A stretch of 48,774 bases of DNA from contig JBFFUI010000013.1 in the NCBI GenBank assembly GCA_041571435.1, positions 1-48,774 on the forward strand, given 5' to 3'. Below are positions 13,186-40,835 of this stretch, piece after piece; the stretch's first letter is position 1, and the number at the start of each line of letters is the position of its first letter. Under the pieces are notes generated by a model. It was not told the origin of the DNA and made no database searches. It saw nothing but the letters and a program-made list of their open reading frames with translations. The DNA comes from Sulfurimonadaceae bacterium (GTDB lineage: Bacteria; Campylobacterota; Campylobacteria; Campylobacterales; Sulfurimonadaceae). The translations under genes were made by a program, and so were the position numbers.

Positions 13186-13384
13186 CTGTCACCCCTTCAT
13201 TATCTCACTGTTCATTTCTTATAGTATAAACTATCCAACTGAATATTTACACTACATCATATAATTCAAAATTATACCAAGCTCAACTGTGTATAATTAG
13301 ACAATATCTATGTATCGAAAGCAAGCATTTTCAAAGAGTTAATGCTATATATTTATGTCAGATATTAAAAAGTACGAGGTCATT

Positions 13385-19785: not shown

Positions 19786-19838
19786 ACTCGTTCCTTATAT
19801 GCGCGTCTCTAGTCCTGGCTGCACGGCAGACTGTTTCG

Positions 19839-21464: not shown

Positions 21465-21585
21465 TTATTTTGCTCTCCGTTCCTATCTGTCCACTTTATC
21501 TATTATACATTAAAAAACACCCGCCATCCGAATAGAGCTACCTTTTCGGCGTTTGTCTCTATTGCAAACTAACCATACGCAACAT

Positions 21586-24500
21586 TTACTTCTCTTTGCC
21601 TAGCAGGCTGCCGATCTTCTCTAAAAGATGCGGCGGCTCGATCGGTTTTGCAAGGTAGTCATCCATACCTTCATCGATAAAGTGTTGTCGATCACCGATC
21701 AGGGCATTGGCCGTCAATGCTATGATCGGCGTATGTACCAGCCCCTGTTCCTCTTCAATCTTCAAGATCGCTTTGGTCGCGCCTATACCGTTGAGCTTTG
21801 GCATGTTCTCGTCCATCAGGATCAGATCGAACCTTCCTTTGCTAAACTTTTCGACAGCCTCCACACCATTTTCTGCGACCTCATAGGTCAATCCGGCACC
21901 GCTGAGTATGATACCGACAAACATGCGGTTGGCTTCGTTGTCCTCGACAAGCAGCAGGTGCCCATCAAGATTGCCATGCTCCTGCTGCACCTCTTCGCTG
22001 CTCACATCGCTATCCTCGCCGAGTGAAACAGGCACAGAAAAGAAGAAGGCACTCCCCTCACCCAGGGTACTTTCGACTTTAAGTTCTCCTCCAAGCATCT
22101 CGACAAGCTTGGCACTGATCGTCAAGCCAAGCCCCGTACCCCCGTACTCTCTTACAATCGACGTGTCCGCTTGCGCGAATGACGCAAAGATGTGCTGTTG
22201 CTTATCTTCCGCTATACCGATACCGTTGTCTTCGACTCGTAAATGCAACTGCCCTTCATCATACGTTATCATGCAGCTTATCTTTCCCTGCTTGCCGGTA
22301 AACTTGATGGCGTTGGAGAGGAGGTTGGAGAGCACCTGCTTCAGTCTCAGAACATCCCCATGCAGTGTCTTTGGGATGTTTTCATTGCATCTGATGCCAA
22401 GAGCGATCTCTTTTTCAGCCGCTTTTGCCTGAAACAGTTTTGCCGTGCCGTAAAGCTCTTTCTTCGGCTGAAAGTCAACCTCTACGATCTCCAACTTTCC
22501 GCTCTCGATTTTGCTGCAGTCCAGAATATCGTTGATGATCTGCAACAGTGTCTCGGAAGAGTTTTCAATGATCTCAAAATACTTGCGTTTTGACTCGTTG
22601 TGTTCATCTTCTTTGAGCAGAGAGATAAAACCGTTCATTGCATTGAGCGGTGTCCGGATCTCGTGCGACATATTGGCCAAAAACTCACTTTTCGAAGAGG
22701 AGGCACGTTCGGCCTCTGCCTTGGCTGCCTCCATAATCGTATGGCTCTCTTCCAACTTACGTTTTGCCTCCAATATCTCTTCGGTCTTCTGCTTCTGTTT
22801 CTGGTAGGAGTCCACCAGCATACTGTTCATCAGAGCCAGTGTCTCTTCCACCTCTTTACGCTCGGTAACATCCAGGAACGTTCCCTGAACATAGACGATC
22901 TTCTCCCCGTCACGGACAACTTTTATTGTGGCCGAGATCGTCCGGTTTACACCGTCTTTGCGAACGATGTTCCAGCTATGCTCGCTCCCGACCTCCTTGT
23001 TATTCAGAATATCCCGTAAGTTTTTTCGGTAACGTGCGCGTTCTGATGGTACCAGGTAAGAGAGTATGGTTCGCAATGCCGGCGTGAAACTCTGCGGTAC
23101 CTCCCCCAATAACTTGTAGAGTTCATCACTCCATCTTATCTTATGCTCTTTAATATCCCATTCCCAGCTTCCAAGATGTGCGATACTTTGCGCTTCCATC
23201 AACCTGGCTTCGTTTCTGGCCATCTTGTTTTCGAGCGCCTTTTTCTCACTGACATCCGTATGGGTTCCCAGCATCCGTACCGGTCTGCCTTCCTCATCAA
23301 AGATGGTCTTGCCGCGACCCAGGACCCATACCCAGTGCCCATCTTTGTGTTTTAGTCTGTGCAGGTTTTCATACTGCTCTGTCTTACCCGAAATATTGGC
23401 TTCGAAGTCCGCAAAGGTCTGCTTCATATCATCAGGATGGATCCGGCTCTGCCACTCCTGAAACTCATTTTTTAGTTCATTTTCATCATACCCGAGCATC
23501 TCTTTCCAGCGTTTGGAAAAATAGATCGTATCTTCCACCAGATCCCAGTCCCAAACGCCATCGCCTATCCCGGCCAGCGTCAGTTCATACCGCTCATTGA
23601 TGCGCTGTATCTCTTTCTCTGCCGCGAGACGTTCGCTGATATCAACCGATATCGCTACAAGCTGCGGTCTGTCCTCCAGATCGATCCGCTGAAAATGTGT
23701 CTCTACAGGGTAGGTCGTGCCATCTTTACGGCGGTTTTCACCCACAACCACCCGATGTTTCACACTTCCGTCACGCAGTGACTGAAGGGCACTCTCCATC
23801 TCGTCTCTGTCGCCCGCGCATAGATTGGACAAGGATATGCTTTTCATCTCATCATGCGTGTAGCCGAGGCCGTGGATCGCCGAACAGTTCGCAAAGGAGG
23901 CATTGTCACTATCGAGTTCAAAAATGTAGACTTCATTCACATTGAGATTCAAAACAGTGGCAAGTTTTTCCTGTTCTTTCTGCAGCATGGTCAAGACCGT
24001 AATGTCGGAAAACGCCCCCAGTACGCCGATGACCTCACCCGATGTATCCCGCAAAGGCACTTTTGAGATCGAGACAATCATCGCATCATCGCCGGGCAGA
24101 TCGATATTGCTTATATAGTTTTTATGCGCCTTTCCCGTTGTAATGACCTCTTCATCCGTCGCCCGATAAGCCAAAGCATGGTTGTGCCAGGCAAAGGCAA
24201 AATCATCTTTGCCTACGATCTCTGATACATTTTCGACACCGGCCATTTTTGCGAAAAGTGCATTACCGCCAATGTAGTTTTTATCCCTGTCCTTCCAAAA
24301 AATGTAGATCGGCAGCGCATCCAGAAGCTCCCGTAAAAACTGGCTCTCTTTGTGCAGCGAGTCCGTCCGTTCCTGCACCAATTGGTTCAAACGCTGATTC
24401 AACGATTCAAGCTCATCGTTCTTTTTCTCTACACTGCGGGTCAACTCGACTTTTCGGTTGGTATAGAAGGACAAAAGAAGAAAAACACCCAGCAACGCCA

Positions 24501-25473
24501 GGGAGACTGCGGCCACTCTCACCCAATAGTCAACGCCCAGGAAGATGCCTTTGACATCTTTTTGAAAGAGTGTGAAAAAAGCTTCGACCTGCTTGGTTTC
24601 ACCCCTTTTGACCACCAGGAAAGTGACCTGCTTGTCAAACATCCACTTATCCAGCAAGATTGAAAAGGCATCGTCTGAGACCATTCTATACGCGATCTCC
24701 TCTCGGCTCTCATCTCCATAAAGATGGTCCAGTATATCTTTCGGGTCATCAGGCGTCCCCGCTTCCCTCATCATTTTCAGAAAATTTTCGTTTTCAAAAC
24801 TTTTTCGATACTGCTCTTTTTGAACAGTTGAGAGCATCTCTTTATTGACAATAAAATGGAGATGGATATCCAAGAGTTTTTCAAGTTCGTCGACAAACTC
24901 CATAGGCGAAACTGAGAACTCCACACAGCCTATATACGCCTTATTCTTGTCAAAAAGAGGATAGACGAACCTGAAAAGACCGGCATGTTTTCCGACTTCA
25001 AACCCCTCTGTCGGCAGATGGTCACTGTTGACCCTGGCGACACCGGAGAGAATACCGTTGATCTCATATCCCACCCGTTCGGGCGCGTTCATACGCATAA
25101 AACTGTGGTTGTCCGGCAGATAAAAATGCATCTCTTTGAACTTTTGTTCTCTGATACTCCGATAGTTCTCATGTAAAAGCGATGCCATCTCTATTCGAAG
25201 CGCTTTTTTTCGCTCTTCATCGGCTACTGCGGCCTCACTGAAAAGCGCTATCACCTCGGGGTCTGTTCTGACAGCGGCATAGGCCATTTGCGATACTTTT
25301 TGAAACCCGCTGTAGAGGCTGGTATAGGCCTCTTCCGCCGTAGCCGTCTGGATCTTCAGAAAGTCCTGAACGACATATTGCTGCCTGTAGTACAACATGG
25401 CTATCAGCAGCGTCTCTAAAAGAAGAAAAAGCACAAGAAGGAGTTTATTTTTAAAAATGTACACTTTTGCCAA
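21586..25473 (-). CDS. Membrane hybrid histidine kinase: periplasmic Cache-like domain + 4 PAS + HisKA/HATPase + REC
   Basis: Two TM segments flanking a region with GFEVGK...FRFVYPL, PAS repeats, FLANMSHEIRTPL, ILMDENMP; start uncertain (TTG 25473 or GTG 25464). Confidence 0.9.
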   Translation of the reverse strand: MAKVYIFKNKLLLVLFLLLETLLIAMLYYRQQYVVQDFLKIQTATAEEAYTSLYSGFQKVSQMAYAAVRTDPEVIALFSEAAVADEERKKALRIEMASLLHENYRSIREQKFKEMHFYLPDNHSFMRMNAPERVGYEINGILSGVARVNSDHLPTEGFEVGKHAGLFRFVYPLFDKNKAYIGCVEFSVSPMEFVDELEKLLDIHLHFIVNKEMLSTVQKEQYRKSFENENFLKMMREAGTPDDPKDILDHLYGDESREEIAYRMVSDDAFSILLDKWMFDKQVTFLVVKRGETKQVEAFFTLFQKDVKGIFLGVDYWVRVAAVSLALLGVFLLLSFYTNRKVELTRSVEKKNDELESLNQRLNQLVQERTDSLHKESQFLRELLDALPIYIFWKDRDKNYIGGNALFAKMAGVENVSEIVGKDDFAFAWHNHALAYRATDEEVITTGKAHKNYISNIDLPGDDAMIVSISKVPLRDTSGEVIGVLGAFSDITVLTMLQKEQEKLATVLNLNVNEVYIFELDSDNASFANCSAIHGLGYTHDEMKSISLSNLCAGDRDEMESALQSLRDGSVKHRVVVGENRRKDGTTYPVETHFQRIDLEDRPQLVAISVDISERLAAEKEIQRINERYELTLAGIGDGVWDWDLVEDTIYFSKRWKEMLGYDENELKNEFQEWQSRIHPDDMKQTFADFEANISGKTEQYENLHRLKHKDGHWVWVLGRGKTIFDEEGRPVRMLGTHTDVSEKKALENKMARNEARLMEAQSIAHLGSWEWDIKEHKIRWSDELYKLLGEVPQSFTPALRTILSYLVPSERARYRKNLRDILNNKEVGSEHSWNIVRKDGVNRTISATIKVVRDGEKIVYVQGTFLDVTERKEVEETLALMNSMLVDSYQKQKQKTEEILEAKRKLEESHTIMEAAKAEAERASSSKSEFLANMSHEIRTPLNAMNGFISLLKEDEHNESKRKYFEIIENSSETLLQIINDILDCSKIESGKLEIVEVDFQPKKELYGTAKLFQAKAAEKEIALGIRCNENIPKTLHGDVLRLKQVLSNLLSNAIKFTGKQGKISCMITYDEGQLHLRVEDNGIGIAEDKQQHIFASFAQADTSIVREYGGTGLGLTISAKLVEMLGGELKVESTLGEGSAFFFSVPVSLGEDSDVSSEEVQQEHGNLDGHLLLVEDNEANRMFVGIILSGAGLTYEVAENGVEAVEKFSKGRFDLILMDENMPKLNGIGATKAILKIEEEQGLVHTPIIALTANALIGDRQHFIDEGMDDYLAKPIEPPHLLEKIGSLLGKEK

Positions 25474-25558
25474 ACCTTAACCGATAATTACCGTATATTC
25501 CTATTAATTCTATAGTATTTTATTTTAAATTGACTATAGCTGTTTATCTATCCGATGT

Positions 25559-25578
25559 CTGTAGGATTAATCCTACAG
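25559..25578. promoter_or_regulatory. Palindromic operator box 1 (TGTAGG-N6-CCTACA)
   Basis: Perfect 20-bp palindrome CTGTAGGATTAATCCTACAG; the 18-bp core starts 22 nt from minus-strand gcTATAGT (25538-25533). Confidence 0.8.
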
Positions 25579-25730
25579 GACGTAAGCTTTACGCCTCTTG
25601 TATTAACACCACTATATGTAATATATTATACATACAAATGGGGCTTTTTAAAATTGTCCCCGAAAATGAAGTCTGCAGAGGTTTTTATTTCTCTTTCTTC
25701 TGTATAATCCTCCCGCCGAAAGGAGCGGAA

Positions 25731-26036
25731 ATGCCTATCAACAGAGACCAGATAGCCGAAAGGCTAGGATTTAAACGCAGTGACATCGATATGCTGCTTG
25801 CTATGTTCAGCAAAAATGCCGCGACATCTTTTGAAGAGATGCAGACAATGATAGCTGAAAAAAATATGCAGGGGATCGCCGATGCCGCCCATGCAATAAA
25901 AGGTAGTGCCGGCAACTTGAAACTGGATAATATCTACAACCATGCTCTGATGATCGAAATGGCCGCAAAACAGTCCGAAGATCTGGATTATGCCGCAGCA
26001 CACGAACAGTTGGGCAGACTGCTCGATGCCGTATGA
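25731..26036 (+). CDS. Free-standing Hpt protein
   Basis: AHAIKGSAGNL motif; ATG 25731 after AAGGAG; TATAAT at 25703-25708. Confidence 0.88.
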   Translation: MPINRDQIAERLGFKRSDIDMLLAMFSKNAATSFEEMQTMIAEKNMQGIADAAHAIKGSAGNLKLDNIYNHALMIEMAAKQSEDLDYAAAHEQLGRLLDAV

Positions 26037-26072
26037 TCCAGATGCGGCAAGACTATTAGGTGAGTAGAAGCT

Positions 26073-28280
26073 ATGAATGAGCTTTTGACAAAGCAGTTGC
26101 GTGCAAGTTTTGGAGAAGACTTTGACCAGGAGAATCTGAGCGACGAGCTGAAAGACTTTGTTGCTAAGGTGCAGCAGTCCTATACCAAACACGAACGTCA
26201 GACAGCACTTCTGGACAATACGCTCAACCGTCTCTATAAAGAACTCAACGAGTCAAACAAATTCGTCATAGAAAGAAACAATGATCTCTATGAACTTCTT
26301 AAAGAGCGTTCTAATGCGCTGTCGGTTCAGACCGAAGAGGCGGATAAAGCGCTTAACCTTCTCAGTCAGTACAGAGAGGCGATCGACACCTCTCTTATTG
26401 TTACGATGACCGATCCTGATGGTATTATTACCTATGTCAATGACAACTTCTGCAAGATCAGCGGATACTCTCAGACAGAGGCTGTCGGCCATTCGCACAA
26501 TATTATTCGTCATCCGGATACCCACACGAAAGTCTATGACAAACTGTGGTCGGCACTGCACAATAAAAAGATCTGGCACAGCACCATGCGAAACCAGAAA
26601 AAAAATGGTGGCACCTACTACGTCAGTGTCAGTATCATCCCCTTTCTTGATGTGGATGGAACGATCATCAACTACATGTCTATCCAGGAGGATATTACGT
26701 CCAAGGTCGTGGCAGAGCAAAAACTGAAGACGGAACAGGCACGAACGTCTGCGATCTTCAACCATCAAGAGAGTGCCGTTATCATCTCCAATAGAGCAAG
26801 TGGAATCACTGAGGCCAATAAATCGTTTTACTCCCTCTTTGGCTTTAAGAACCTCGATGAGTTCAAAAGACAACACCGTTCTATCTGTGAGCTGTTCCTG
26901 TCCGAAGAGGGCTATCTTGCCCCAAGTACACCAAGACGACACTGGGCTGATGATATCTTTGAACATCCCGACAAGGTCCACCGTGCGCGCATCAGAAATA
27001 AAAATGGTGACATCGCGACCTTCAGAGTTCACGCACGCTATATCAAACTTGATGGCAAAAGGTCGATCTTGAGTACCTTTACAGATATCACTGATTCTGA
27101 ACTGCTTCGCGTCAAAGCGGAAGAGGCGAAACAGGCCAAATCAGAATTTCTCGCCAACATGAGTCATGAGATCAGAACACCGCTCAACGGTATCTTCGGC
27201 TTTTTACAGCTGCTTGAAACGACAAAGCTCGACAGCATGCAAAAAGAGTATGTTGATATCGCACAAGGCTCTATGAAGACATTGCTTAGTGTCGTCAATG
27301 ACATTCTTGATTTTTCTAAAATCGAGAGCGGTAAAATCGAAAAGACCTTTACCGAACTGTATACACAGCAACTCTTTGAGAGTATCTACGAAAGATACAT
27401 CGCCGTTGCACAGAAAAAAAATATCACCTATACACTGAAAATCGATCCTAATGTACATGACCAGCTCTTGCTTGATGAGCTGCATATCCGACAGATTATG
27501 CAAAACTTCATCAACAACGCCCTCAAATTTACGCCGGACAATGGTTCGGTCACGGTTAAGGTGGATCTGCTCTCAACACATGATGATACGCAGCGTATAC
27601 GTATCGCCGTAGAGGACACAGGTATCGGTATCGAAGAGAACAAACTTGAGACCATCATGCAGCCTTTTTCCCAGGCAGACTCCAGTACCACACGAAAATT
27701 TGGCGGAACAGGGCTTGGGCTAAGTATCAGTAAGTCTCTTATCGAACTTTTGGGCGGAGAGATGGAGATTATCAGCGACGAAGGCAAAGGCAGCACCTTC
27801 TACTTTGAGATCGACACGCAAATGTGTCACCAATCAGTGTCACACAAGAAGAAAGACACCACCGAGGCAGAAAGTACATCATCAGACACTGCAGCAGAGG
27901 TAAACGAAAGTGAACCTATGAACATTCTGATTGCGGAAGACTATGAAGTGAACAGGATGTTCATCAGCATGCTGCTCAACAACTATGGCAACCTGACCTA
28001 TGACTTTGCCACAAACGGCGAAGAGGCGGTCAATATGCTAAACAAAGACCCTTATGACCTTATTTTGATGGACATCAACATGCCGGTCATGAACGGCTGT
28101 GATGCCACACTTGCTATTCGAAACGAGCTGAAGATTGATACGCCGATCATTGCGTTGACTGCCAATGCCCTTGAGGGGGACAGAGAACGGTTTTTAGAGC
28201 TCGGTATGAATGACTACCTGCCAAAACCGCTTGAGATTGCCGACGTGGACAAAATGTTGAAAAAGTATAGACCGCACTAA
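26073..28280 (+). CDS. Cytoplasmic hybrid histidine kinase: coiled coil + 2 PAS + HisKA/HATPase + REC
   Basis: First PAS is of Aer/NifL type (YVNDNFCKISGY...HNIIRHPD...LW); FLANMSHEIRTPL; ILMDINMP. Confidence 0.92.
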   Translation: MNELLTKQLRASFGEDFDQENLSDELKDFVAKVQQSYTKHERQTALLDNTLNRLYKELNESNKFVIERNNDLYELLKERSNALSVQTEEADKALNLLSQYREAIDTSLIVTMTDPDGIITYVNDNFCKISGYSQTEAVGHSHNIIRHPDTHTKVYDKLWSALHNKKIWHSTMRNQKKNGGTYYVSVSIIPFLDVDGTIINYMSIQEDITSKVVAEQKLKTEQARTSAIFNHQESAVIISNRASGITEANKSFYSLFGFKNLDEFKRQHRSICELFLSEEGYLAPSTPRRHWADDIFEHPDKVHRARIRNKNGDIATFRVHARYIKLDGKRSILSTFTDITDSELLRVKAEEAKQAKSEFLANMSHEIRTPLNGIFGFLQLLETTKLDSMQKEYVDIAQGSMKTLLSVVNDILDFSKIESGKIEKTFTELYTQQLFESIYERYIAVAQKKNITYTLKIDPNVHDQLLLDELHIRQIMQNFINNALKFTPDNGSVTVKVDLLSTHDDTQRIRIAVEDTGIGIEENKLETIMQPFSQADSSTTRKFGGTGLGLSISKSLIELLGGEMEIISDEGKGSTFYFEIDTQMCHQSVSHKKKDTTEAESTSSDTAAEVNESEPMNILIAEDYEVNRMFISMLLNNYGNLTYDFATNGEEAVNMLNKDPYDLILMDINMPVMNGCDATLAIRNELKIDTPIIALTANALEGDRERFLELGMNDYLPKPLEIADVDKMLKKYRPH

Positions 28281-28376
28281 GCGTCTATGCAGCTTCTGAT
28301 AGTATAGATGTTTTAGAGAAATGGTACCGGACGGTACCTGTAATGTGTGCAAACGTTAAGAACGCTTGCTGAGGGA

Positions 28377-28910
28377 TTAGCTTAGCCCCAATACTGCTCT
28401 GATCTGGTTAGGCATATAATATTCAAACTGTTTAGGGAAGATGAAAAAATCGATTTCACCTTTCGCATCATCCAGTTCACTCCATTCATCAATATCAAAG
28501 TTGATAGCGACAATACCCAATGTAGGGATCTTCGAGATATGTTCAGCCGTCAGCATGTTAGCCAGATCAGTCACTTGGGGATTGTGACTGACGACTAAAA
28601 TACTGTTGAAGCTATTGTCTTCCAACATCAAAGTCTCTTTGAGCGTTTCAGGCTTTGCAAGATACAGTTCCTGAAGATAATGCCTGGGGCCTTCATATTC
28701 CATTATGTCCGCCAGTCCATCTGCCGTCTCTTGTGTTCTTAGAGAACAACTTGCAAGAACAAGATCAGGTGATATACCGCGTAACTTCAGATACGAGCCC
28801 ATCGTGGTAATGTCACGTTTGCCTTTTTTTGTAAGGCCCCGTTCAAAATCACTTGCTCCGGGATCTTGCCAGTCTGATTTCGCGTGTCGAATAAGGTATA
28901 AAGTTTTGAT
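28377..28910 (-). CDS. sixA: Phosphohistidine phosphatase SixA family
   Basis: Manual translation upstream of ATG 28802 gives IKTLYLIRHAKSDW...DFERGLTKKG, then RTQETA and VSHNP. Probable ATC start at 28910-28908. Confidence 0.85.
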   Translation of the reverse strand: MKTLYLIRHAKSDWQDPGASDFERGLTKKGKRDITTMGSYLKLRGISPDLVLASCSLRTQETADGLADIMEYEGPRHYLQELYLAKPETLKETLMLEDNSFNSILVVSHNPQVTDLANMLTAEHISKIPTLGIVAINFDIDEWSELDDAKGEIDFFIFPKQFEYYMPNQIRAVLGLS

Positions 28911-28944
28911 ATTGGCACCTTTCTATCAGTTACTGTTTGTAAAC

Positions 28945-29334
28945 TTAGAGCTTTCCTAGTTCAATAGACATTGATTTAGAAGCTTTGTCCATGATCATTT
29001 TAGCCAAAGCAACATTTCCATCATCACGGAAAATTGAGAAGACGTTCAGTTTTGTGTTGTTGTCAGAACTGAATTCACCTGCACTGTTGATAAGGAATAC
29101 GTGTCCGTCAAGCGTCTTTGCTTCAATAGAAGCTGCTTCACTGAAGCCGACGTCCAGAGAAGATTCTGAAACCATACGATAGGCATCATTGAAGATACTT
29201 GCAGAGTAAGCGATATCTGTACCCGTGTTATCATTGTCGATGTAAAGTGTCTCACCAGAGTAGTTTAGCACGGCAGAACCAAGGTATCCGTTAACTGAAC
29301 GGAGTTTTTTCATAGAATTGTCAAAATCGATCAT
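28945..29334 (-). CDS. Roadblock/LC7 (MglB)-like small protein
   Basis: 129 aa with pattern helix-V.GYLGSAVLNYSGETL...helix...beta strands-GNVALAKMIM, typical of the roadblock fold; AAGGA RBS. Family call is by eye. Confidence 0.6.
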   Translation of the reverse strand: MIDFDNSMKKLRSVNGYLGSAVLNYSGETLYIDNDNTGTDIAYSASIFNDAYRMVSESSLDVGFSEAASIEAKTLDGHVFLINSAGEFSSDNNTKLNVFSIFRDDGNVALAKMIMDKASKSMSIELGKL

Positions 29335-29360
29335 TGTTTTATCCTTTAGATTTTATTTTT

Positions 29361-29879
29361 TTATTTGTTGAGCTGCATCATGAAATCGTTAAACGTTTCA
29401 GCGCTCTGACCATTTTCAGCCAAGAAGTCCATCAAAGCTTTTTCTGACGCTTCTACACCGTCACTTTTCTCAATCTCTAACAGTTTGGCATAAAGTTCAC
29501 CAATTGTTGCTTTAGCGCTCTCAGAAATCTGCTTACGTGTCGAAACATAGTTTCTAAACGAACCGTCTGGGTTCTTCGCTACTCTTACTTGTGCAAGTAC
29601 CCAGTAATAACCGCCGTCTTTACAGAGGTTTTTTACATAGGCATTCACATCTTTACCTGCTTGTATGTTATCCCAAAGATATTTGAAAATAACTTTCGGC
29701 ATATCAGGGTGACGAAGAATCGAGTGTGGTTGATCGAGAAGCTCACCTTGTGTATATCCAGAGATTTTCATAAAAATCGGATTCGTATAGGTAATATTAC
29801 CTTTCTCATCTGATTTAGATACAATCATATCTACACTTGTTACTTCATGTTCAACATCTGTTGGTGTTGGTCTTTCCAT
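29361..29879 (-). CDS. Stand-alone PAS protein, Aer/CetB-like (putative FAD redox sensor)
   Basis: IVSKSDEKGNITYTN..F..ISGY, HSILRHPDMP, LW, VKNLCKDGGYYWV; no MCP or kinase domain; AAGGAG RBS. Confidence 0.88.
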   Translation of the reverse strand: MERPTPTDVEHEVTSVDMIVSKSDEKGNITYTNPIFMKISGYTQGELLDQPHSILRHPDMPKVIFKYLWDNIQAGKDVNAYVKNLCKDGGYYWVLAQVRVAKNPDGSFRNYVSTRKQISESAKATIGELYAKLLEIEKSDGVEASEKALMDFLAENGQSAETFNDFMMQLNK

Positions 29880-29940
29880 CTTGGAACTCCTTGGTTTTTT
29901 TTGATTTAAAGCATATTAACAGAAAATCAAACTTTAAGTA

Positions 29941-29958
29941 TGTAGGGAATATCCTACA
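29941..29958. promoter_or_regulatory. Palindromic operator box 2 (TGTAGG-N6-CCTACA)
   Basis: TGTAGG-GAATAT-CCTACA; 23 nt from minus-strand TGtTAATAT (hexamer 29918-29913) and 22 nt from plus-strand TATAAT (29980-29985). Confidence 0.8.
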
Positions 29959-30020
29959 CCTATAATAATCTTTTTTAATTATAATGTGGTTATTCAAATC
30001 CTATATATAGAAGAGAACTC

Positions 30021-32078
30021 ATGGAAAAAATCGACGCAGCAGAACTAAAAGGCCTACTTAACGACGTAACCAAAAAAATGGAAAAAGCCAATGACAACAT
30101 TGAGCTCAACACAATCATCGAGAACTTTATTGTCTCAGTGATGCAATCAGAGTTTGCGTCACTGTGGGTTTTCGATGAGGACAGAGCCGTGCTTGTTCGG
30201 GAGCGCGCGGAAGGCAGTGTGCGCGAGATCTCCATGCTTGATCAGCACGGTGTTCTGGCCAAATGTTTCTTTACGCTAAGCGGCGGTATCTATAACTACC
30301 TCGCAAGTGAAAAAGAGTATGTGCCTGCGACAGACAACCCGGATGACATACGAATGAAATCTAAGATCATCCTTCCTCTTCTCGACGGTGATCGACTCAT
30401 GGGTATGCTGACTGCCTACTCTTCTATTAAAAAGATCAAGAACTTTGATGAAGATGATATGGAGCTTCTCGAGGCGATGATACCGTTCCTGATCAATGTC
30501 ATCTACCGTATGCGTCCGGAGATGAAAACAGATACTACGGAAAGAGTAAAGGTCGGAGAACGTCTTCGTGAAGAGTCCAAAAGCGTTGTTGAGAAGGTCG
30601 AAGAGATCACTCAGGTACAAAAGACGACAGAGACATCGGACGAGACACTGCTCTTTCTTTCCAACACGGTACATGATATTCGGACACCTGCCAATACACT
30701 TTACGGTTTTCTTGAGCTGCTTGAAGATCAGTTGGAAAATCCACGTCTTCTTCAGTACATCCACAACGCAAAAGAGAGTGCCCAGTTCATCAATGATCTA
30801 ACCACTTCTATCCTGGACAGAGTCTCAAGTCAGAGAGAGCGTACTAAGGCAAAACCGGTCCAGATCAGTCCGGCAAAGTTCTTTGCCGACATCGCAGAGA
30901 TCTTTTCAGCCAACATGTTTAACAAGAAAATTACCTTTAACATCTATGTAGACCCTTTGATCGCCAAAGAGATCGTGATCGAGGATATCATGCTTAAACG
31001 TGTTGTCATGAACCTTATCGGTAATGCCTACAAGTTTACACCGAATGAAAAAACGATTGATTTCTCGGTGCAATATGATGACGCTGCTAAACGTATGCGT
31101 ATCTCTATTAAAGATACCGGTATCGGTATCGCAAAAGAGAAACAAGAAGAGATCTTCAAAGCATTTTCACAGGCAGGCGATGACACAAGCGTAAATTACG
31201 GCGGAACCGGACTGGGCCTATCGATCAGTGCGCAGTATGTCAAAGACCTCGGCGGTGAGCTTAAACTGACAAGCGAGCTTGACGTAGGAAGCACATTCTA
31301 CTTTGATATCCCTGTAGAGGTCGCCAACAAAGATGTTACCTTCAAACCTGTCCGCAGCAAGAAGACGCGAGTCGGCGTTCTATTGGCGTCAAACAATGTC
31401 TTCAGCGGCATGAACCTAACACGTTACCTAGTGCAGATGGGTCTCGAAAACGAGCAGATAACGCCGATCAACAGCATCGATGAATCTCCGGAGAAGATGA
31501 CCCACCTTATCTGTTTCCAACAGCAACTTAACGATGATGTAATTACCTATGCACAAAACAAGAATATCCAGCTTCTTGTTGTTGAAGAGTCGTTTTTATC
31601 ACTTATCCAGGATGCAGAGAACAAAAACTACGCTATTATCTCTCAATACGGCTATTATGCCAATGTACTGCACACATTTATCTCGAACAAAGCACAGATG
31701 AAAGTACTTGTTGTCGATGACGATAAGATCAACATCCAGCTGCTTAGAGCAATCCTTGAAGAGGGGTTCTGCCAGGTTGAGACAGCAATGGACGGCGAGA
31801 TTGCATTGTCAATGCTCAAAGAAGGGATAAAAGAGGGAGAACCGTTCTCCATGGTCTACCTTGACAACCACATGCCTAAGCTTTCCGGTATGGAGGTGAT
31901 CACAGAGTATCGTGCCTTTGAGAAGAAAATGGATGCCCAGCCTGTTTATTCCGTTTACATCTCCGGTGACCCGGTGGCCGATGCGGATAAGAGCCCTCTG
32001 TTCAACTCTTATGTCGGCAAACCGTTCAATAAAAAGAAGATCAAAGAGACATTGCAAGAGGCTACAGGCAAAAAGTAA
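30021..32078 (+). CDS. Hybrid histidine kinase: GAF + HisKA/HATPase + degenerate receiver-like region + REC
   Basis: GAF (SKIILPL...FDEDDMELL), H-box TVHDIRTP, GGTGLGL, VVDDD...YLDNHMP...GKPF. Confidence 0.9.
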   Translation: MEKIDAAELKGLLNDVTKKMEKANDNIELNTIIENFIVSVMQSEFASLWVFDEDRAVLVRERAEGSVREISMLDQHGVLAKCFFTLSGGIYNYLASEKEYVPATDNPDDIRMKSKIILPLLDGDRLMGMLTAYSSIKKIKNFDEDDMELLEAMIPFLINVIYRMRPEMKTDTTERVKVGERLREESKSVVEKVEEITQVQKTTETSDETLLFLSNTVHDIRTPANTLYGFLELLEDQLENPRLLQYIHNAKESAQFINDLTTSILDRVSSQRERTKAKPVQISPAKFFADIAEIFSANMFNKKITFNIYVDPLIAKEIVIEDIMLKRVVMNLIGNAYKFTPNEKTIDFSVQYDDAAKRMRISIKDTGIGIAKEKQEEIFKAFSQAGDDTSVNYGGTGLGLSISAQYVKDLGGELKLTSELDVGSTFYFDIPVEVANKDVTFKPVRSKKTRVGVLLASNNVFSGMNLTRYLVQMGLENEQITPINSIDESPEKMTHLICFQQQLNDDVITYAQNKNIQLLVVEESFLSLIQDAENKNYAIISQYGYYANVLHTFISNKAQMKVLVVDDDKINIQLLRAILEEGFCQVETAMDGEIALSMLKEGIKEGEPFSMVYLDNHMPKLSGMEVITEYRAFEKKMDAQPVYSVYISGDPVADADKSPLFNSYVGKPFNKKKIKETLQEATGKK

Positions 32079-32168
32079 CATTTACTGCCACACGCTGCCG
32101 TTACGTTACTTCGGCAGTCTCTCATTGTTATACGAAAAGAGGGAGCCTATCAAGCAGAAAAGTGCCCT

Positions 32169-33488
32169 CTATGCACCCCGTAATCTATCAATAAACATTG
32201 GCCACTCCTGTGGTCTGCTGTAATAGTACCCCTGCACTGTTATCGACTCAAACGTTTTTACGATATCATCTTCCAAGGCGGTCTCCACACCTTCGACGAT
32301 CACTTCAAGGTCCAAAGCGCGTGACATATCGATGATGGCCTGAAAGAGCGCCTTGCGCTTTATATCTTTATCCAAATTTCTGACATATGATCTGTCCACT
32401 TTCAAGCTGTTGATGGGGAGTTCTGCCAGATATTTCAGTGAGGTGTAACCGGTACCATAGTCATCGACCTCGATACCGATGCCCATCATCCTGATCTTTT
32501 CAAGCAGCTGTGCCAGGTTCTTGATATTTTGGGTCAGGGTCTCTTCCATGATCTCAAAGTTCAGTTTTTTACCGGCCAGATTGTAGTTATTATGCATAAA
32601 CTGGATCGTTTCAATGAAGTCGCTTGCCATCAGTACTGCGGGCGAGATGTTGACAGAGAGGGAGATGTCCTCGATACCGGCAGCTTCTAGTTCGGAAAAC
32701 TTCTTGGATGCCTCAACAAGGGCCTTGATGGTCAGTGGTCCGATCATACCGCTCTGTTCTGCTATAGGGATAAAAAGCAGAGGTGACACCTCGCCAAATT
32801 GGGGATGACGCCATCTGGCAAGAAGTTCTGCCCCGTTGAAACGCTGCTCGCTATGCGAGTACTGTCCCTGATAGACAAAATAGATCTCACCGTTTTCAAG
32901 CGCGGCCGGTAGGTCCTCCATCAGGCGTTTGCTTTTGAGCAAAAAGGGCTGTTCCAAATTACGGGTAAATGCGATGTGGTTCTTGCCGTCTTTTTGTACT
33001 TTTCGCATGGTATTCTCAGCTGTTTTTAGCAGCCTGTACGCATTGTTTTCGTCAGCAGACGAGAGGCTTATGCCGATAGAGGCGCTGATATAGAACATAT
33101 TGGGATCGACAAAAAAAGGCTCATAAAGTATGGACATAATACGCTTGGCATACTGCTCTGCACTTGCTTCAGACTGCGGTTCCTGTGACACGATCGCAAA
33201 CTGTTCGTTCCCAACTCTGGCCAAAATATCATCTTTGCCCAGATGCGGCTTGATCTTCTCGCTAAGCTGTACGATCAGCTTGTCATCGATATCAAAACCG
33301 AAGGTCTCATTAAAGCGGGCAAGGTCATCGAATTCGATAAAAAGCAGAGAGGTAAGCTGTTTGCTTTCAGAAGTGGCAGCAAGCTTTTTTTCAAGTGATT
33401 TGACCAGATAGGTCCGGTTTGGAAGCAGGGTAAGTGAATCGAACTCTGTCGAATACCAGCCTGTCCTCGGGGTGTGATTTACGACCAT
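32169..33488 (-). CDS. GGDEF(degenerate)-EAL protein, probable c-di-GMP phosphodiesterase
   Basis: DSLTLLPNR, RVGNEQF in place of RxGGDEF; EAL domain AELLARW, VNISP, DDYGTGY, LKVD, EGVE, QGYYY. Confidence 0.88.
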   Translation of the reverse strand: MVVNHTPRTGWYSTEFDSLTLLPNRTYLVKSLEKKLAATSESKQLTSLLFIEFDDLARFNETFGFDIDDKLIVQLSEKIKPHLGKDDILARVGNEQFAIVSQEPQSEASAEQYAKRIMSILYEPFFVDPNMFYISASIGISLSSADENNAYRLLKTAENTMRKVQKDGKNHIAFTRNLEQPFLLKSKRLMEDLPAALENGEIYFVYQGQYSHSEQRFNGAELLARWRHPQFGEVSPLLFIPIAEQSGMIGPLTIKALVEASKKFSELEAAGIEDISLSVNISPAVLMASDFIETIQFMHNNYNLAGKKLNFEIMEETLTQNIKNLAQLLEKIRMMGIGIEVDDYGTGYTSLKYLAELPINSLKVDRSYVRNLDKDIKRKALFQAIIDMSRALDLEVIVEGVETALEDDIVKTFESITVQGYYYSRPQEWPMFIDRLRGA

Positions 33489-33664
33489 CTGTGTTCTTTG
33501 TCGCTGCTTACATCCGTAGTGCTTGTATGATCACTCTGTTGGATCGGTTGGCCAAAGAACACTTTTTCTTCGCTGACAACGATAGTGAAGCTTGTTGCAT
33601 TATTTGCGGTCAAGGCCTGTATCTCAGAGGAGTACAAAAAATAACCAGCATCCGGCTTCATCAA
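33479..33664 (-). CDS. Possible small hypothetical protein (61 aa)
   Basis: Fills the gap between the receiver and EAL genes and overlaps the EAL start by 10 nt; no recognisable motif. Confidence 0.25.
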   Translation of the reverse strand: MMKPDAGYFLYSSEIQALTANNATSFTIVVSEEKVFFGQPIQQSDHTSTTDVSSDKEHRWS

Positions 33665-33684
33665 TTTCTTCTGTCAATTATCTG

Positions 33685-34056
33685 TTAGACGTGCAGAAGT
33701 TGACGCACATTCTGCTTATATGAAGTCGGCAAGATCGGCTTTTTGAAAAAAGCGTCAAAGTAAGCACTGTGCTCTTCATATTCATGCGGATAGATCGTCA
33801 GAGCAGCGATACGTGTGTCACTGTTTTTCTCTTGTGCTGCCTTTGCTACATCTATACCTGATCCGTCCGGAAGGTTGATATCAACAACCATGGCATCGTA
33901 ATTGTTATTGGCAATCTTGTCCAGCGCATCTTTGACACTGTTGACAGAATCGACGTTTATCTTGATTTTTAACTCTTTTGCGAGTGTGCTGATGACTTTC
34001 TCTTCAAACTCAACAATAAAGTCAATATCATCGACAAGTAGGATACTTTTACTCAT
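33685..34056 (-). CDS. Single-domain response regulator (receiver only)
   Basis: LLVDD, VVDINLPDGSG, ALT, KP; AAGGA RBS. Confidence 0.88.
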   Translation of the reverse strand: MSKSILLVDDIDFIVEFEEKVISTLAKELKIKINVDSVNSVKDALDKIANNNYDAMVVDINLPDGSGIDVAKAAQEKNSDTRIAALTIYPHEYEEHSAYFDAFFKKPILPTSYKQNVRQLLHV

Positions 34057-34112
34057 CAGGTAATCCTTTTTACAAAATTTATATCATTATAGCCAGTCAA
34101 AATTTTTATGTA

Positions 34113-34130
34113 TGTAGGGCTTTTCGTACA
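34113..34130. promoter_or_regulatory. Palindromic operator box 3 (one mismatch)
   Basis: TGTAGG-GCTTTT-CGTACA; 22 nt from minus-strand gcTATAAT (34091-34086). Confidence 0.7.
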
Positions 34131-34311
34131 AAATAGATATTTAAGAAAACAATTTCACTATCATCTATCAACTTTTTCATCGCCAATACTATCCAAAACT
34201 GTTCGCTTGGCATACTGTTATGGTCGGAGATGATGCCTACGTATCGTCAAAAAAGAGGCTATTTTAAGCGAATTTAACATCACGCTTGTGCTGTTGTGCA
34301 CAAACTGGTTG

Positions 34312-34337
34312 ACGGCCACGATCACTTGATGGGCCGT
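34312..34337 (-). terminator. Stem-loop downstream of the yeiH-like gene
   Basis: ACGGCC...ATCA-CT-TGAT.GGCCGT interrupted inverted repeat. Confidence 0.35.
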
Positions 34338-34348
34338 AGAGGAGTTTA

Positions 34349-35449
34349 CTAGAAGGTAGCGACCACCATCTGCGTGATTACAAAACCACCGACGACAAGC
34401 CATATGAACATACTGCCTGCTGTATAAATCGGTGCGAGACCGAGACCTTTGAACTTCGCAAACCGTGTACCCATACCAAGGGCTGTCATTGCCATCGTCA
34501 ACAAGAAGGTATCGACGATATTCAGGTTCGTAATCCAGTACTTGATCATCTCTGCCGTTTCTGCCGGAGCGCTCAATGTATAGTTATGGATAAGTGAATT
34601 CACACCTGCCATACCGACAAAGTAAACTGCAAACCAAGGGATCACAAGCTTGAGCTTGCTGCCCTCACCACCAGACTTCTTAGCCATATAGCTTAAGATC
34701 AGACCCAGCACGATCAACATCGGCGCAATCATAATGACACGTGTCATTTTGACGATAACCGCTGTATTTGCCATATCAACTGGTGCTCCCGGTACCGAAG
34801 CAGGTACCGCCACAACTTGGGCTACCTCATGGATTGTTCCACCAACGTAGATTCCAAATGTTTTCGGGTCCATGTGCAGAAAGCCTGTTGCCGGTTCAAT
34901 GACTGCCGAGTAGAGCACCGGGTAGAGGAACATCGAGATCGTTCCGAAGAGGACAACCATAGAGACAGCGATCGCTGTTTTATGCTCTTCTGCTTTGAGT
35001 ACCGGTTCTGTCGCAAGTACAGCCGCTGCACCACAAACAGAGGCACCTGATGCTGTCAGGATAGAGGTGTCACGATCCATCTTGAACATCTTGGTCCCCA
35101 ACCAGATACCCAGCAGCATCGTTGAAGACAATACAAGAAGCGAGACCATAAAGCCCTGCATCCCCACTTCAGCGATCTCCTGGAAAGTAATACGGAAACC
35201 GTAAAAGACGATCGCAAAACGAAGTATCTTCTTACCGGAAAAGATGATCCCGCTCTCCCAAGCCGATGGAAAATGGTTATGCAGTGTATTCGCATAGAAG
35301 ATACCAATAACTATACCGACAACAAGCGGTGATATACCAAGTTTAGCAACCGGTGCCAACTCTGCTATATAAGTCGCTGCTGCCGCCACGAGTGCTACAA
35401 AGACGATACCGTTGATCGTACCGCCGCGTTTTTCTTTGGAAAATGCCAC
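34349..35449 (-). CDS. yeiH: YeiH/UPF0324 family membrane protein (putative sulfate/sulfite exporter)
   Basis: LRFAIVFYGF, GASVCGAAAVLA, GGTIHEVAQV, VKMTRV motifs; GTG start. Confidence 0.88.
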   Translation of the reverse strand: MAFSKEKRGGTINGIVFVALVAAAATYIAELAPVAKLGISPLVVGIVIGIFYANTLHNHFPSAWESGIIFSGKKILRFAIVFYGFRITFQEIAEVGMQGFMVSLLVLSSTMLLGIWLGTKMFKMDRDTSILTASGASVCGAAAVLATEPVLKAEEHKTAIAVSMVVLFGTISMFLYPVLYSAVIEPATGFLHMDPKTFGIYVGGTIHEVAQVVAVPASVPGAPVDMANTAVIVKMTRVIMIAPMLIVLGLILSYMAKKSGGEGSKLKLVIPWFAVYFVGMAGVNSLIHNYTLSAPAETAEMIKYWITNLNIVDTFLLTMAMTALGMGTRFAKFKGLGLAPIYTAGSMFIWLVVGGFVITQMVVATF

Positions 35450-40181: not shown

Positions 40182-40835
40182 ATGGCACGTCTATTGCTGG
40201 TCGAAGATGATGTAAACCTTGCAGAGACCCTTATTGAGCTCTTGAAGTTGGAGAACTTTGAAGTACGCTGGGTCGGTGATGGGCAGCAGGCCATTGATGC
40301 AACCTTTATGCACAACTTCGACCTTTTTCTCCTCGATGTCAACGTCCCCTTTGTAAACGGATTTGAGCTCCTTGACGAACTGCGCGAGAGCGGAGACGAG
40401 ACCCCCGCCATCTTTATCACGGCCATGAGCGATATCGCCTCCCTCTCAAAGGGTTTTGCGGTCGGCGCTGACGATTACATCAAAAAACCTTTTGACTTTG
40501 ACGAGCTGATTGTACGCATCTATTCGCTGATACGCAAACGGCTCAAGATCAAAGAGAACATCATCACTGTTGATGATTTCCTTTTTCATATTGACACCAA
40601 TGAGCTCTACCGAGGAGAACACTTTATCCCGCTCGCCCCTGTCGAGCTTAAGCTTGCCGCCCTGCTCTTTAAACAGATAAACACGACCATCACCAAAGAG
40701 AACATCCTTATAGAGCTCTCCGATGGGGAAGAAGCGAGCGAGGGCGCCTTACGTGTCCATATCAACAAGCTGCGCAAACACGGGCTGCCTATACAGACCG
40801 TCAAAGGGACAGGATACCGTCTTGCGTCATCATGA
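40182..40835 (+). CDS. OmpR/PhoB-family response regulator
   Basis: LLVEDD, LLDVNVP, GADDYIKKPF, winged helix LRVHINKLRK...TVKGTGY. Confidence 0.93.
   Translation: MARLLLVEDDVNLAETLIELLKLENFEVRWVGDGQQAIDATFMHNFDLFLLDVNVPFVNGFELLDELRESGDETPAIFITAMSDIASLSKGFAVGADDYIKKPFDFDELIVRIYSLIRKRLKIKENIITVDDFLFHIDTNELYRGEHFIPLAPVELKLAALLFKQINTTITKENILIELSDGEEASEGALRVHINKLRKHGLPIQTVKGTGYRLASS

Follow-up and report, generated by a model that had tools for sequence, protein, structure and literature searches.

A palindrome resembling the GacA box as the proposed operator of a NarL/LuxR-type regulator in a Sulfurimonadaceae signalling island

Copies of the inverted repeat TGTAGG-N6-CCTACA lie between the genes of a signalling island in a sulfur-oxidising Sulfurimonadaceae bacterium, which raises the question of whether this box is an operator, which protein would bind it, and with what effect on transcription. 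We regard it as fairly probable that the box is the operator of the island's own phosphorylation-dependent NarL/LuxR-type regulator, which would activate the promoters of that island in a class-II-type manner. The features concerned are listed in Table 1.

Table 1. Coordinates of the boxes, promoter elements and genes in the analysed window
Feature	Position	Strand	Remarks
Weak HPt-like protein	12877-13185	minus	divergent from regulator gene; PF01627 21.1 bits (cut-off 24.6)
REC-GerE (NarL/LuxR-type) response regulator	13385-14023	plus	proposed box binder
Array of four sensor kinase genes	14067-25473	minus	dCache-PAS hybrid HK, REC-HK-REC, NMT1/SBP-PAS HK, FIST-HK (Pfam)
-10-like TATAGT	25533-25538	minus (plus letters ACTATA)	gap 21 nt to box 1; predicted to drive the kinase array (21586-25473 and the genes that follow)
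Box 1	25560-25577		exact palindrome TGTAGG-ATTAAT-CCTACA (TGTAGGATTAATCCTACA); between dCache-PAS hybrid kinase gene (minus) and HPt gene (plus)
Third half-site CGTAAG	25581-25586	plus	3 nt after box 1
Candidate -10 TATTAA	25601-25606	plus	gap 23 to box 1, conserved; HPt/PAS-kinase operon
Candidate -10 TATATTATA	25622-25630	plus	conserved; HPt/PAS-kinase operon
HPt protein	25731-26036	plus	divergent from box 1 (Pfam)
PAS hybrid kinase	26073-28280	plus	Pfam; operon with HPt gene
SixA-like histidine phosphatase	28377-28910	minus	probable ATC start
Roadblock-like 129-aa protein	28945-29334	minus	
PAS-only protein	29361-29879	minus	
-10-like TAATAT	29913-29918	minus (plus letters ATATTA)	gap 22 nt to box 2; predicted promoter of PAS/Roadblock-like/SixA-like operon
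Box 2	29941-29958		exact palindrome TGTAGG-GAATAT-CCTACA (TGTAGGGAATATCCTACA); midway between two divergent -10 elements
-10 TATAAT	29980-29985	plus	gap 21 nt to box 2, T-tract before hexamer; predicted promoter of GAF hybrid kinase
GAF hybrid histidine kinase	30021-32078	plus	plus-side target of box 2
GGDEF-EAL gene	32169-33488		196 nt downstream of receiver gene
Stand-alone receiver protein	33685-34056	minus	box 3 target
-10 TATAAT	34086-34091	minus (plus letters ATTATA)	gap 21 nt to box 3; predicted promoter of stand-alone receiver gene
Box 3	34113-34130		TGTAGG-GCTTTT-CGTACA (TGTAGGGCTTTTCGTACA), one mismatch
OmpR-type regulator	40182-40835		

Within the window, i.e., the whole 48,774-nt stretch that was analysed, two exact copies and one copy with a single mismatch were found, all three at the positions reported in the initial annotation. 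Three matches with at most one mismatch were seen versus 0.03 expected, a number that none of 100 shuffles reached, and two exact matches versus 0.00 expected. A genome-wide scan, which the initial annotation had proposed as a check, likewise found the motif to be rare: the window's two copies are the only exact ones in the 2.16-Mb genome, and four of the five sites with at most one mismatch are intergenic and adjoin two-component signalling genes. A fourth copy (with one mismatch) lies on contig C10, upstream of a paralogous PAS hybrid kinase gene. The intergenic placement claimed for the three window copies holds with the HPt gene starting at the ATG at 25731; box 1 was marked as coding by the ORF heuristic solely via a TTG-extended HPt frame. 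Since the genome contains ten same-half pairs lying at most 10 kb apart among its 925 exact 6-N6-6 palindromes, the pair of exact boxes is unremarkable by itself, and it is the genomic context of the sites, their spacing to -10 hexamers and their conservation across genomes that set them beyond chance. When box and -10 hexamer (at a gap of 21-22 nt) were scanned for as a composite, five matches were obtained at up to one mismatch versus none for two control palindromes, and at three mismatches the count was at background level (25 versus 28 and 20 in the controls).

With a -10-like hexamer defined as TANNNT with at least four of six matches to TATAAT, 36 of the 38 boxes in nine genomes were found to have one at a gap of 21-22 nt on at least one side. 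Counted by orientation, this amounts to 45 of 76 (and to five of eight for the four sites of this genome), versus a background of 3.5% per orientation. The -10 hexamers claimed earlier (TATAGT, TAATAT and TATAAT on the minus strand, and TATAAT on the plus strand at box 2) were all in place at gaps of 21-22 nt. With a transcription start about 7 nt beyond the predicted -10 hexamer, this gap would put the box centre at about -42.5, in agreement with the centre near -42/-43 proposed before. The only -35-like match that a sigma-70 scan returned at the boxes was CAGACA, on the minus side of box 1 (CAGACA-17-TATAGT). Nevertheless, since Campylobacterota promoters often function without a -35 element, such a weak -35 does not imply activator dependence.

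Box 1 is located upstream of the first gene of the kinase array (encoding the dCache-PAS hybrid kinase), whose gaps of 121 nt and 53 nt and one overlap suggest a single operon. Its orthologues in G002, G005, G007 and G008 have other spacers, and the gap to the minus-side -10 is unchanged in all four. Comparison of five orthologues in register revealed that the third half-site reads TGTAGG or TGTAAG in G005, G007 and G008, and that a fourth half-site is degenerate; the third half-site may open another, weak box whose centre would lie 21 bp from box 1. On the plus side, neither candidate -10 lies at a gap of 21-22 nt, the nearest being at 23. The three boxes of the initial annotation were correctly located, while the C10 site, this possible weak second site and the divergent HPt-kinase operon had been missed.

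At box 2, a nine-genome alignment showed invariant half-site cores (T62 G63 T64 A65 G67 / C74 C75 T76 A77 C78) around a variable spacer, the other invariant blocks of the region being the plus-side -10 with its T-tract and the ribosome-binding site of the PAS gene. The plus-side hexamer is invariant as TA.AAT in these nine genomes of three genera, at a gap of 21-22 nt in all. The minus-side -10, with just two invariant columns, reads TATTAT or TATAAT at an unchanged gap in G005, G007, G008, G010, G011, G012 and G015. In G010, G011, G012 and G015, the GAF hybrid kinase gene is directly followed by the regulator gene. Box 3 carries a conserved C-to-G change in its promoter-distal half, and in G002, G007, G008 and G024 the resulting CGTACA variant also precedes the orthologue of the receiver gene; its -10 is kept in the first three and reads TACAAT at a gap of 22 nt in G024. 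The receiver/EAL operon that had been claimed is doubtful in this genome, because the two genes are parted by 196 nt and by a terminator-like hairpin (33657-33643).

Two boxes lack a -10 at the canonical gap, i.e., those at G007:C58 and G012:C87, and at the latter a TATAAT precedes the perfect box by 14 nt and the start codon of a PAS gene follows 22 nt after it, which puts the box in a repressor-like position. This site favours a reading in which the same regulator acts on the same operator negatively or in both directions, with the dimer standing in the way of polymerase contacts upstream of promoters that lack a -35, or with activation and repression mixed. A second dimer on the third half-site after box 1 would likewise cover the stretch between -35 and -10 of the candidate promoter with TATTAA, and good -10 hexamers (TATAAT) might fire unaided. 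However, sites for repressors mostly lie across the core promoter or downstream of it, and simple occlusion needs no strict helical phasing. Moreover, the fixed upstream gap at 36 of the 38 boxes corresponds to a class-II geometry, like that of the lux box at -42.5 in the available text on that system (PMC3376562), and we therefore consider negative or two-way action unlikely.

Activation by the island's own regulator, the reading that we favour, can also be set against the distribution of the box. Conservation in orthologous promoters, a check suggested earlier, was borne out: orthologous intergenic regions of no fewer than four Sulfurimonadaceae genera carry the box (genomes G002, G005, G007, G008, G010, G011, G012, G015, G024, G042 and G061), with free spacers and conserved half-sites. 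Exact boxes are present in 11 of the 21 family genomes that encode an orthologue of the regulator versus 6 of the 180 that do not, the genomes in these counts being related and hence not independent, and a reversed-pattern control matched in 6 of 201 genomes. In the complete genomes G024, G075, G084 and G091, boxes and regulator gene are about 5 kb apart at most, and across four genera the boxes remain within a few kb of it despite rearrangements. The exact box is missing in ten of the 21 regulator-bearing genomes; variants with one or two mismatches occur in G001, G011, G015, G042, G097 and G169, and in G169, whose regulator is 42% identical, the operon containing the regulator gene has a one-mismatch box in front of it. 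In G060 and G117 the surroundings of the regulator gene showed no box, nor did the short pieces of G165 and G208. In G011, the regulator gene is directly followed by the exact GacA-type variant TGTAAGGATTATCTTACA.

Because gains and losses of the box and the regulator coincide with those of the island as a whole, co-occurrence separates the regulator from its targets in G021 alone (n = 1). This genome (100% complete) has kept the GAF-kinase/PAS/129-aa/SixA-like genes; neither a regulator orthologue nor, upstream of the kept target genes, a box at up to three mismatches was found in it. An RNA hairpin was ruled against by conserved half-site variants (CGTACA, TGTAAG...CCTACT and CTGACA) that break pairing without compensation.

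The regulator is the genome's sole REC-GerE protein, one of two GerE proteins overall, and Pfam gave no DNA-binding domain elsewhere in the island. A longer version of its frame starts at 13355, and the ATG at 13385 is preceded by GAGG and agrees with the starts of the orthologues and of UvrY. Matches to PF00072 (85 bits) and PF00196 (71 bits), both above cut-off, define a NarL/FixJ architecture. Its best NCBIfam match is UvrY/SirA/GacA (NF007018; 155.4 bits, under the curated equivalog cut-off of 280), followed by MctR (138.9) and NarL (122), and the regulator and E. coli UvrY are 31% identical over 211 aa. The claimed GacA/UvrY likeness hence stands as to the closest family, and is limited by the score under the cut-off, this level of identity and the lack of CsrA (see below). 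The peptide LSPKTVSTYR, previously put forward as a UvrY-like recognition helix, is indeed present and of the LSPKTV..YR.R type, the helix reading LSPKTVSTYRSRILEKL (SPKTVSTYRSR) versus LSPKTVNSYRYRMFSKL (SPKTVNSYRYR) in UvrY, the member of the UvrY/SirA/GacA family used for this comparison. D18, D19, D64 and K114 of the phospho-acceptor pocket and the helix SPKTV..YR.R are invariant among the regulator, seven Sulfurimonadaceae orthologues and E. coli UvrY, and SPKTVSTYR.R is invariant across orthologues that are 60-95% identical. The G010 equivalent of the divergent, weakly HPt-like gene encodes a clear HPt (47.2 bits).

No box was found in the regulator gene's own upstream region in this genome. 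This, together with the confounding of box-regulator co-occurrence with island presence, would suit a real operator with another binder encoded elsewhere, such as the second GerE protein (LuxR-type, on contig C2), an OmpR-type regulator, for which the window holds a gene, or an unrecognised factor. However, the C2 protein does not track the box, as it was not found in box-bearing G005, G024, G011, G012 and G015 and is present in box-less G004, and OmpR-type regulators recognise direct repeats, not inverted repeats of the 6-N6-6 kind. Given also that the island has no further DNA-binding domain by Pfam, that the boxes stay close to the regulator gene in four rearranged genera, and that G021 is without both regulator and box, we deem another binder quite unlikely. 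Finally, chance, or a structural element that no protein binds (a hairpin in DNA or RNA, the remnant of a terminator or a small repeat), to which the ten same-half pairs and a possible 6-bp stem might point, is very improbable in view of the arrangement kept with free spacers at orthologous promoters of at least four genera, the fixed spacing to -10 hexamers, the uncompensated variants (e.g., CGTACA at box 3 and TGTAAG...CCTACT at box 2), the location of the box upstream of the predicted transcription start, where it would not be transcribed from the predicted promoters, and the absence of any Rfam match in the window.

Among known systems, the box of the proposed activator most resembles that of GacA/UvrY (SirA, LetA, VarA). 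In the available text of two reports, the GacA site reads TGTAAG-N6-CTTACA (PMC4353343, PMC4950607); both are 18-bp 6-N6-6 inverted repeats whose half-sites are one base apart (TGTAGG versus TGTAAG), and the exact GacA-type halves TGTAAG and CTTACA are present in relatives. The initial annotation had placed a GacA-like box at an activator position near -42, of which the likeness of the site stands, whereas the GacA sites given in the available text lie far upstream, at -75 and -196 (PMC4950607). The position of about -42.5 fits the lux box instead, described in the available text as an inverted repeat for a dimer with GerE-type helix-turn-helices, centred at -42.5 and requiring both arms (PMC3376562). 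The likeness to GacA/UvrY extends to a REC-GerE regulator with a similar recognition helix and to phosphorelay input via hybrid kinases and HPt domains. However, GacA/UvrY targets are the small RNAs of the Csr/Rsm system, whereas all five canonical promoters predicted here face protein-coding genes for signalling. A search for CsrA found none in this genome: PF02599 scored at best 21.4 bits (cut-off 27), inside a 726-aa frame. BarA/GacS kinases are unorthodox, with the HPt fused to the kinase; no fused HPt domain was found in the island kinases, which are HisKA-HATPase proteins with or without a receiver, the HPt being separate 101-102-aa proteins. The box would work like a GacA box, but the system is not a Gac/Csr system.

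LuxR/TraR share the inferred centre at about -42.5, and both box arms are conserved here even at one-way promoters; they differ in being activated by acyl-homoserine lactones and in their 18-20 bp box of another sequence, whereas the island regulator has a phospho-accepting receiver domain. NarL, DevR (DosR) and VraR, all of known structure, have the same architecture and are strongly similar in sequence (DevR 3c3w, 107.5 bits; VraR, 103 bits; NarL 1a04, 94 bits), with recognition helices reading KTVKNYVSR (DevR) and KTVKTHVSN (VraR) versus KTVSTYRSR here. Their dimeric GerE domains bind inverted repeats, and their published sites differ from TGTAGG-N6-CCTACA.

In the proposed mechanism, a regulator dimer would occupy the box with one GerE helix-turn-helix per half-site, 21-22 nt upstream of a sigma-70-type -10 in promoters with little or no -35, and at this position, that of the lux box, it would act as a class-II-type activator. 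Placed symmetrically between the two divergent -10 elements, one dimer at box 2 could serve both promoters. The predicted regulon comprises five promoters at four sites, i.e., those of the four-kinase array, the PAS/Roadblock-like/SixA-like operon, the GAF hybrid kinase, the stand-alone receiver and the paralogous PAS hybrid kinase on C10, with the HPt/PAS-kinase operon as a possible sixth. Phosphoryl transfer would run from the hybrid kinases via HPt to the regulator, and this phosphorelay would thereby govern how much of its sensors, phosphatase and receiver is made. Such a self-regulating signalling circuit is of a known, fairly ordinary kind. Less probably, a GacA/UvrY-lineage regulator without a Csr/Rsm layer may be the transcriptional hub of a multi-kinase phosphorelay. 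From one dimer site common to divergent promoters, it would directly adjust how much is made of its sensors, its HPt, the SixA-like phosphatase, the receiver sink and the c-di-GMP enzymes. If true, this would reveal a role of a GacA-type regulator outside the Gammaproteobacteria, possibly an ancestral one, and a compact natural self-tuning signalling network in chemolithoautotrophic Campylobacterota.

The initial annotation had proposed that a GacA/UvrY-like palindrome, TGTAGG-N6-CCTACA (the box), recurs in three island promoters, and pattern matching located all three copies in the window, each of them intergenic (boxes 1 to 3, numbered by coordinate, in the table). At up to one mismatch the window contained these three matches against 0.03 expected, and none of 100 shuffles reached three. 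As a look-elsewhere control, exact 6-N6-6 palindromes were counted throughout the source genome (G000; 2.16 Mb, 66 contigs, of which the window is C13), which yielded 925, with 10 same-half pairs less than 10 kb apart. An identical neighbouring pair is therefore unremarkable by itself, and the case for the box rests on other evidence. That such a dyad count recovers real regulons is shown by a second palindrome, TGTAAC-N6-GTTACA, of which G000 carries four exact copies, all intergenic (contig C27 at 3471, 10467 and 12352; contig C20 at 35439). The three C27 copies flank phosphate genes (i.e., a PstS-like binding protein, an ABC ATPase, PhoU and a PHO4-family transporter), and this palindrome is probably a phosphate regulon operator.

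The box was not common genome-wide: G000 has two exact copies, both inside the window, and five at up to one mismatch, three of which are the window sites. Although G000 is ca. 90% coding (ORF heuristic), four of these five sites are intergenic and lie beside two-component signalling genes. The box consensus is (GTc)TGTAGGa-N4-tCCTACA, with a promoter layout of box, 21–22 nt and TATAAT. A composite scan of G000 for the box followed by 21–22 nt and TANNNT revealed five promoters at up to one mismatch, versus none with two control palindromes; at three mismatches, the box gave 25 matches and the controls 28 and 20. Since the scan is at background by then, the detectable G000 regulon amounts to four sites with five canonical promoters, and further members cannot be claimed. 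No box for autoregulation was found upstream of the regulator gene in G000.

Boxes, –10-like hexamers and genes (window coordinates unless a contig is named; product calls from Pfam and NCBIfam)
Feature	Position	Strand	Remark
Weak HPt-like protein	12877–13185	–	
REC-GerE response regulator (the regulator)	13385–14023	+	proposed box binder
Four sensor kinases	14067–25473	–	FIST-HK, NMT1/SBP-PAS-HK, REC-HK-REC, dCache-PAS hybrid HK
ACTATA	25533–25538		21 nt from box 1
Box 1	25560–25577		exact match, intergenic
HPt	25731–26036	+	after box 1
PAS hybrid HK	26073–28280	+	
SixA-like histidine phosphatase	28377–28910	–	
129-aa protein	28945–29334	–	
172-aa PAS-only protein	29361–29879	–	before box 2
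ATATTA	29913–29918		22 nt from box 2
Box 2	29941–29958		exact match, intergenic
TATAAT	29980–29985		21 nt from box 2, opposite side
GAF hybrid HK	30021–32078	+	after box 2
GGDEF-EAL protein	32169–33488	–	
Terminator-like hairpin, then T-run	33657–33643	–	directly past receiver gene
Stand-alone receiver	33685–34056	–	before box 3
ATTATA	34086–34091		21 nt from box 3
Box 3	34113–34130		one mismatch (half CGTACA), intergenic
C10 box	C10:41453		TATAGGACTTTTCCTACA; intergenic, 34 nt ahead of 1051-aa PAS hybrid histidine kinase ORF
C10 kinase locus	C10:41453–44660 (L001 7454–10661)		
C39 box	C39:4062		at most one mismatch; within GC-rich, coding-looking sequence
Other GerE/LuxR-type protein	C2:129450–130217 (L073 1474–2244)	–	256 aa, no receiver, helix ISLNTVKTHMKN

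The proposal also held that the box sits at a fixed distance from –10 hexamers, and the hexamers it named were all present on the expected flanks, with gaps of 21–22 nt. When a –10-like hexamer was defined as TANNNT with at least four of six matches to TATAAT, this canonical gap was observed on at least one side of 36 of 38 boxes from nine genomes (45 of 76 orientations). These genomes are related rather than independent; several of the promoters, however, precede different genes from one genome to another. In G000 intergenic DNA, the background frequency of this hexamer class within a pair of neighbouring offsets was 3.5%. Within G000, five of eight orientations qualified (binomial 3e-6, for a test chosen post hoc). 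With a start ca. 7 nt past the hexamer, the box would span ca. –51 to –34, with its centre near –42.5. Box 2 is flanked on either side by –10 elements in G000, G002, G005, G007, G008, G010, G011, G012, G015, G042 and G061, so that one dimer would serve two divergent promoters. The plus side of box 1 deviates with a gap of 23 nt, and displays a conserved third half-site 3 nt past the box, followed at a greater distance by a second conserved TATATTAT. Boxes in G007:C58 and G012:C87 lacked a –10 at the canonical gap, the latter having a TATAAT upstream of the box.

A sigma-70 consensus scan of 25300–34500 returned 23 promoter-like sites versus 17.8 expected and recovered one predicted promoter only (i.e., the minus side of box 1); because it demands a –35 element, it is uninformative for promoters that have none. 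The sequencing runs listed as containing 25000–34500 comprised 18 DNA runs and none recorded as RNA. Leaderless mRNAs were considered for the C10 kinase and its G005/G007 counterpart (box-N21-TATCCT/TATCTT, with an ATG 6–7 nt later), and this idea was dropped since the G005 ATG is not in frame and conservation of the protein sets in at a downstream start.

The regulator is the sole REC-GerE protein of G000 and one of its two GerE proteins. Among 201 family genomes, 21 carried an orthologue of the regulator (E ≤ 1e-40), and the exact box was present in 11 of these 21 versus 6 of the 180 others; a reversed-pattern control matched in 6 of 201. The box-positive but regulator-negative G008 contains the island in an incomplete genome (72% complete, with a contig that starts at box 1). 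The exact boxes of G021:C92 and G034:C2 fall within long ORFs and were taken as chance occurrences; others were found in G119, G141, G150 and G163. In G024, G075, G084 and G091, boxes are located 2–6 kb from the regulator gene (one or two contigs each). Orthologues of the GAF kinase were restricted to regulator-bearing genomes plus G008 and G021. Because the island is gained or lost as a unit, G021 is the single informative case: no regulator orthologue was found in this 100% complete genome, its GAF-kinase, PAS, 129-aa and SixA-like genes form one co-directional cluster, and no box at up to three mismatches was found within 440 nt upstream of it. The other GerE protein of G000, also of LuxR type, was weighed as box binder and rejected, as its distribution does not track the box: it is present in 4 of 40 relatives (G002, G004, G007 and G010), including the box-less G004, and was not found in the box-bearing G005, G024, G011, G012 or G015. 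Binding by the REC-GerE regulator at a fixed activator position in the island promoters is well supported as a prediction from comparative genomics. Moreover, the gene next after that of the GAF kinase in G010, G011, G012 and G015 encodes the regulator, which suggests that the regulator receives its input from this kinase and that box 2 provides positive autoregulation there.

Regulator orthologues of at least 59% identity occurred in 9 of 40 relatives, and boxes occupied orthologous intergenic places in all nine and in G008. Half-sites were kept and spacers varied (ATTAAT, AGAAAT, AAAAAC, ACAAAT, GAATAT, ATTTCT, CATTTT and others); even the odd CGTACA half of box 3 was retained in G002, G007, G008 and G024. 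In a more distant group (regulator ca. 60% identical), half-sites have diverged to TGTAAG, CTTACA, CTGACA and CCTACT; no compensating changes accompany them, which favours a protein site over a hairpin. An alignment of the box 2 intergenic region from nine genomes in three genera revealed as invariant blocks the half-site cores, the plus-side –10 (TA.AAT) with a T-tract, and the ribosome-binding site of the PAS gene. The minus-side –10 had only two invariant columns in this alignment, its hexamer and gap being kept in the geometry survey. Additional genera conform: the box 2 orthologue of G042 has –10 hexamers at gaps of 21 and 22 nt, in G097 a box separates the regulator gene from a FIST-kinase operon, and in G169 (regulator 42% identical) a one-mismatch box heads the operon containing the regulator gene. 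Other genes following boxes in relatives encode PilJ-N-domain, REC plus GGDEF-EAL, FIST plus hybrid kinase, HPt and PAS-HAMP-GGDEF proteins, and the predicted regulon consistently consists of signalling genes.

The GacA/UvrY label itself holds as a resemblance and not as membership. The best NCBIfam match of the regulator is UvrY/SirA/GacA, at 155.4 bits with a cut-off of 280; it shares 31% identity with E. coli UvrY, and its recognition helix (LSPKTVSTYRSRILEKL vs. LSPKTVNSYRYRMFSKL in UvrY) is close and invariant among orthologues of 60–95% identity. The GacA site described in PMC4353343 and PMC4950607, TGTAAG-N6-CTTACA, equals the box in geometry and differs from it by one base per half-site. 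In contrast, the regulator stays below the curated cut-off, and the GacA sites for which PMC4950607 gives positions lie at –75 and –196, versus a predicted centre near –42.5 for the box. Furthermore, the Gac system acts via Csr/Rsm RNAs, whereas the predicted G000 targets are all protein-coding. No CsrA was detected in G000 (the best PF02599 match, 21.4 bits, is below cut-off and inside a 726-aa frame), and no Rfam family matched in the window. The inferred position is that of the lux box, whose inverted repeat, according to PMC3376562, has its centre at –42.5 and needs both arms. On account of these differences in cut-off, position and targets, the regulator was filed as a NarL/LuxR-type response regulator, outside the Gac/Csr system, that would act at a GacA-like box in the manner of a class-II activator.

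Regarding the island genes, the receiver and GGDEF-EAL genes had been read as one operon. A single operon is doubtful given the 196-nt gap with its terminator-like hairpin; the two may form separate transcription units in the window, unlike in G011, where they are adjacent. The 129-aa protein had no Pfam or NCBIfam match, and the Atlas clusters closest to it bear the name Roadblock/LAMTOR2, no more than a lead. The PAS-only protein is unusually conserved (93% identity between G000 and G010, versus 64% for the regulators and 61% for the GAF kinases), and has an 80% identical paralogue (G000 C3:7046–7558) with no box upstream.

The listed ORF of the SixA-like gene (28377–28922, minus strand) starts at ATG 28802, which is too short since the catalytic LIRHAKS motif lies in frame upstream. 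In 10 of 10 orthologues taken from regulator-bearing genomes (window included), ATG, GTG and TTG are all absent from the stretch that separates the preceding stop codon from this motif. A conserved ATC (ATT in G008; GTG in G021), preceded by AAAGG(T/G)GC, is found there instead, and is probably a non-canonical AUC/AUU start by which translation of the phosphatase might be kept low. With the frame thus extended, scores were 67.4 bits for TIGR00249 SixA (cut-off 74.5) and 33.8 bits for PF00300 (cut-off 21.7). The G021 orthologue (L079, i.e., G021:C47, 10173–10703) reads LIRSAKA, so that the presumed catalytic histidine is replaced.

In G005 and G007, a kinase of 1033 aa lies left of box 1. Along its entire length it shares 64% identity with the C10 kinase, and across the C-terminal 670 aa it shares 68% with the dCache kinase of the window (21586–25473). 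This likeness to both indicates that G000 possesses a pair of paralogues, both equipped with a box of their own, and it appears that box and promoter travelled or were duplicated together with the kinase gene.

Finally, the annotations are consistent with the feedback proposed initially, in which kinases would be raised together with the SixA-like phosphatase and the receiver sink. At the level of search results, no description was found in the literature of this motif or of a LuxR-type response-regulator regulon in Sulfurimonas. The circuit is of a known kind, and its box and predicted regulon are cleanly defined. Transcriptional regulation in the Sulfurimonadaceae is almost unexplored, and the pair predicted here is concrete, with a defined consensus and promoter geometry and a small regulon of nearly all signalling proteins. 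As the island is present in G024, G075, G084 and G091, experiments in relatives may be feasible. The sequences suggest that, in an organism without CsrA, protein-coding genes can be controlled through a GacA-like box located at a class-II position.
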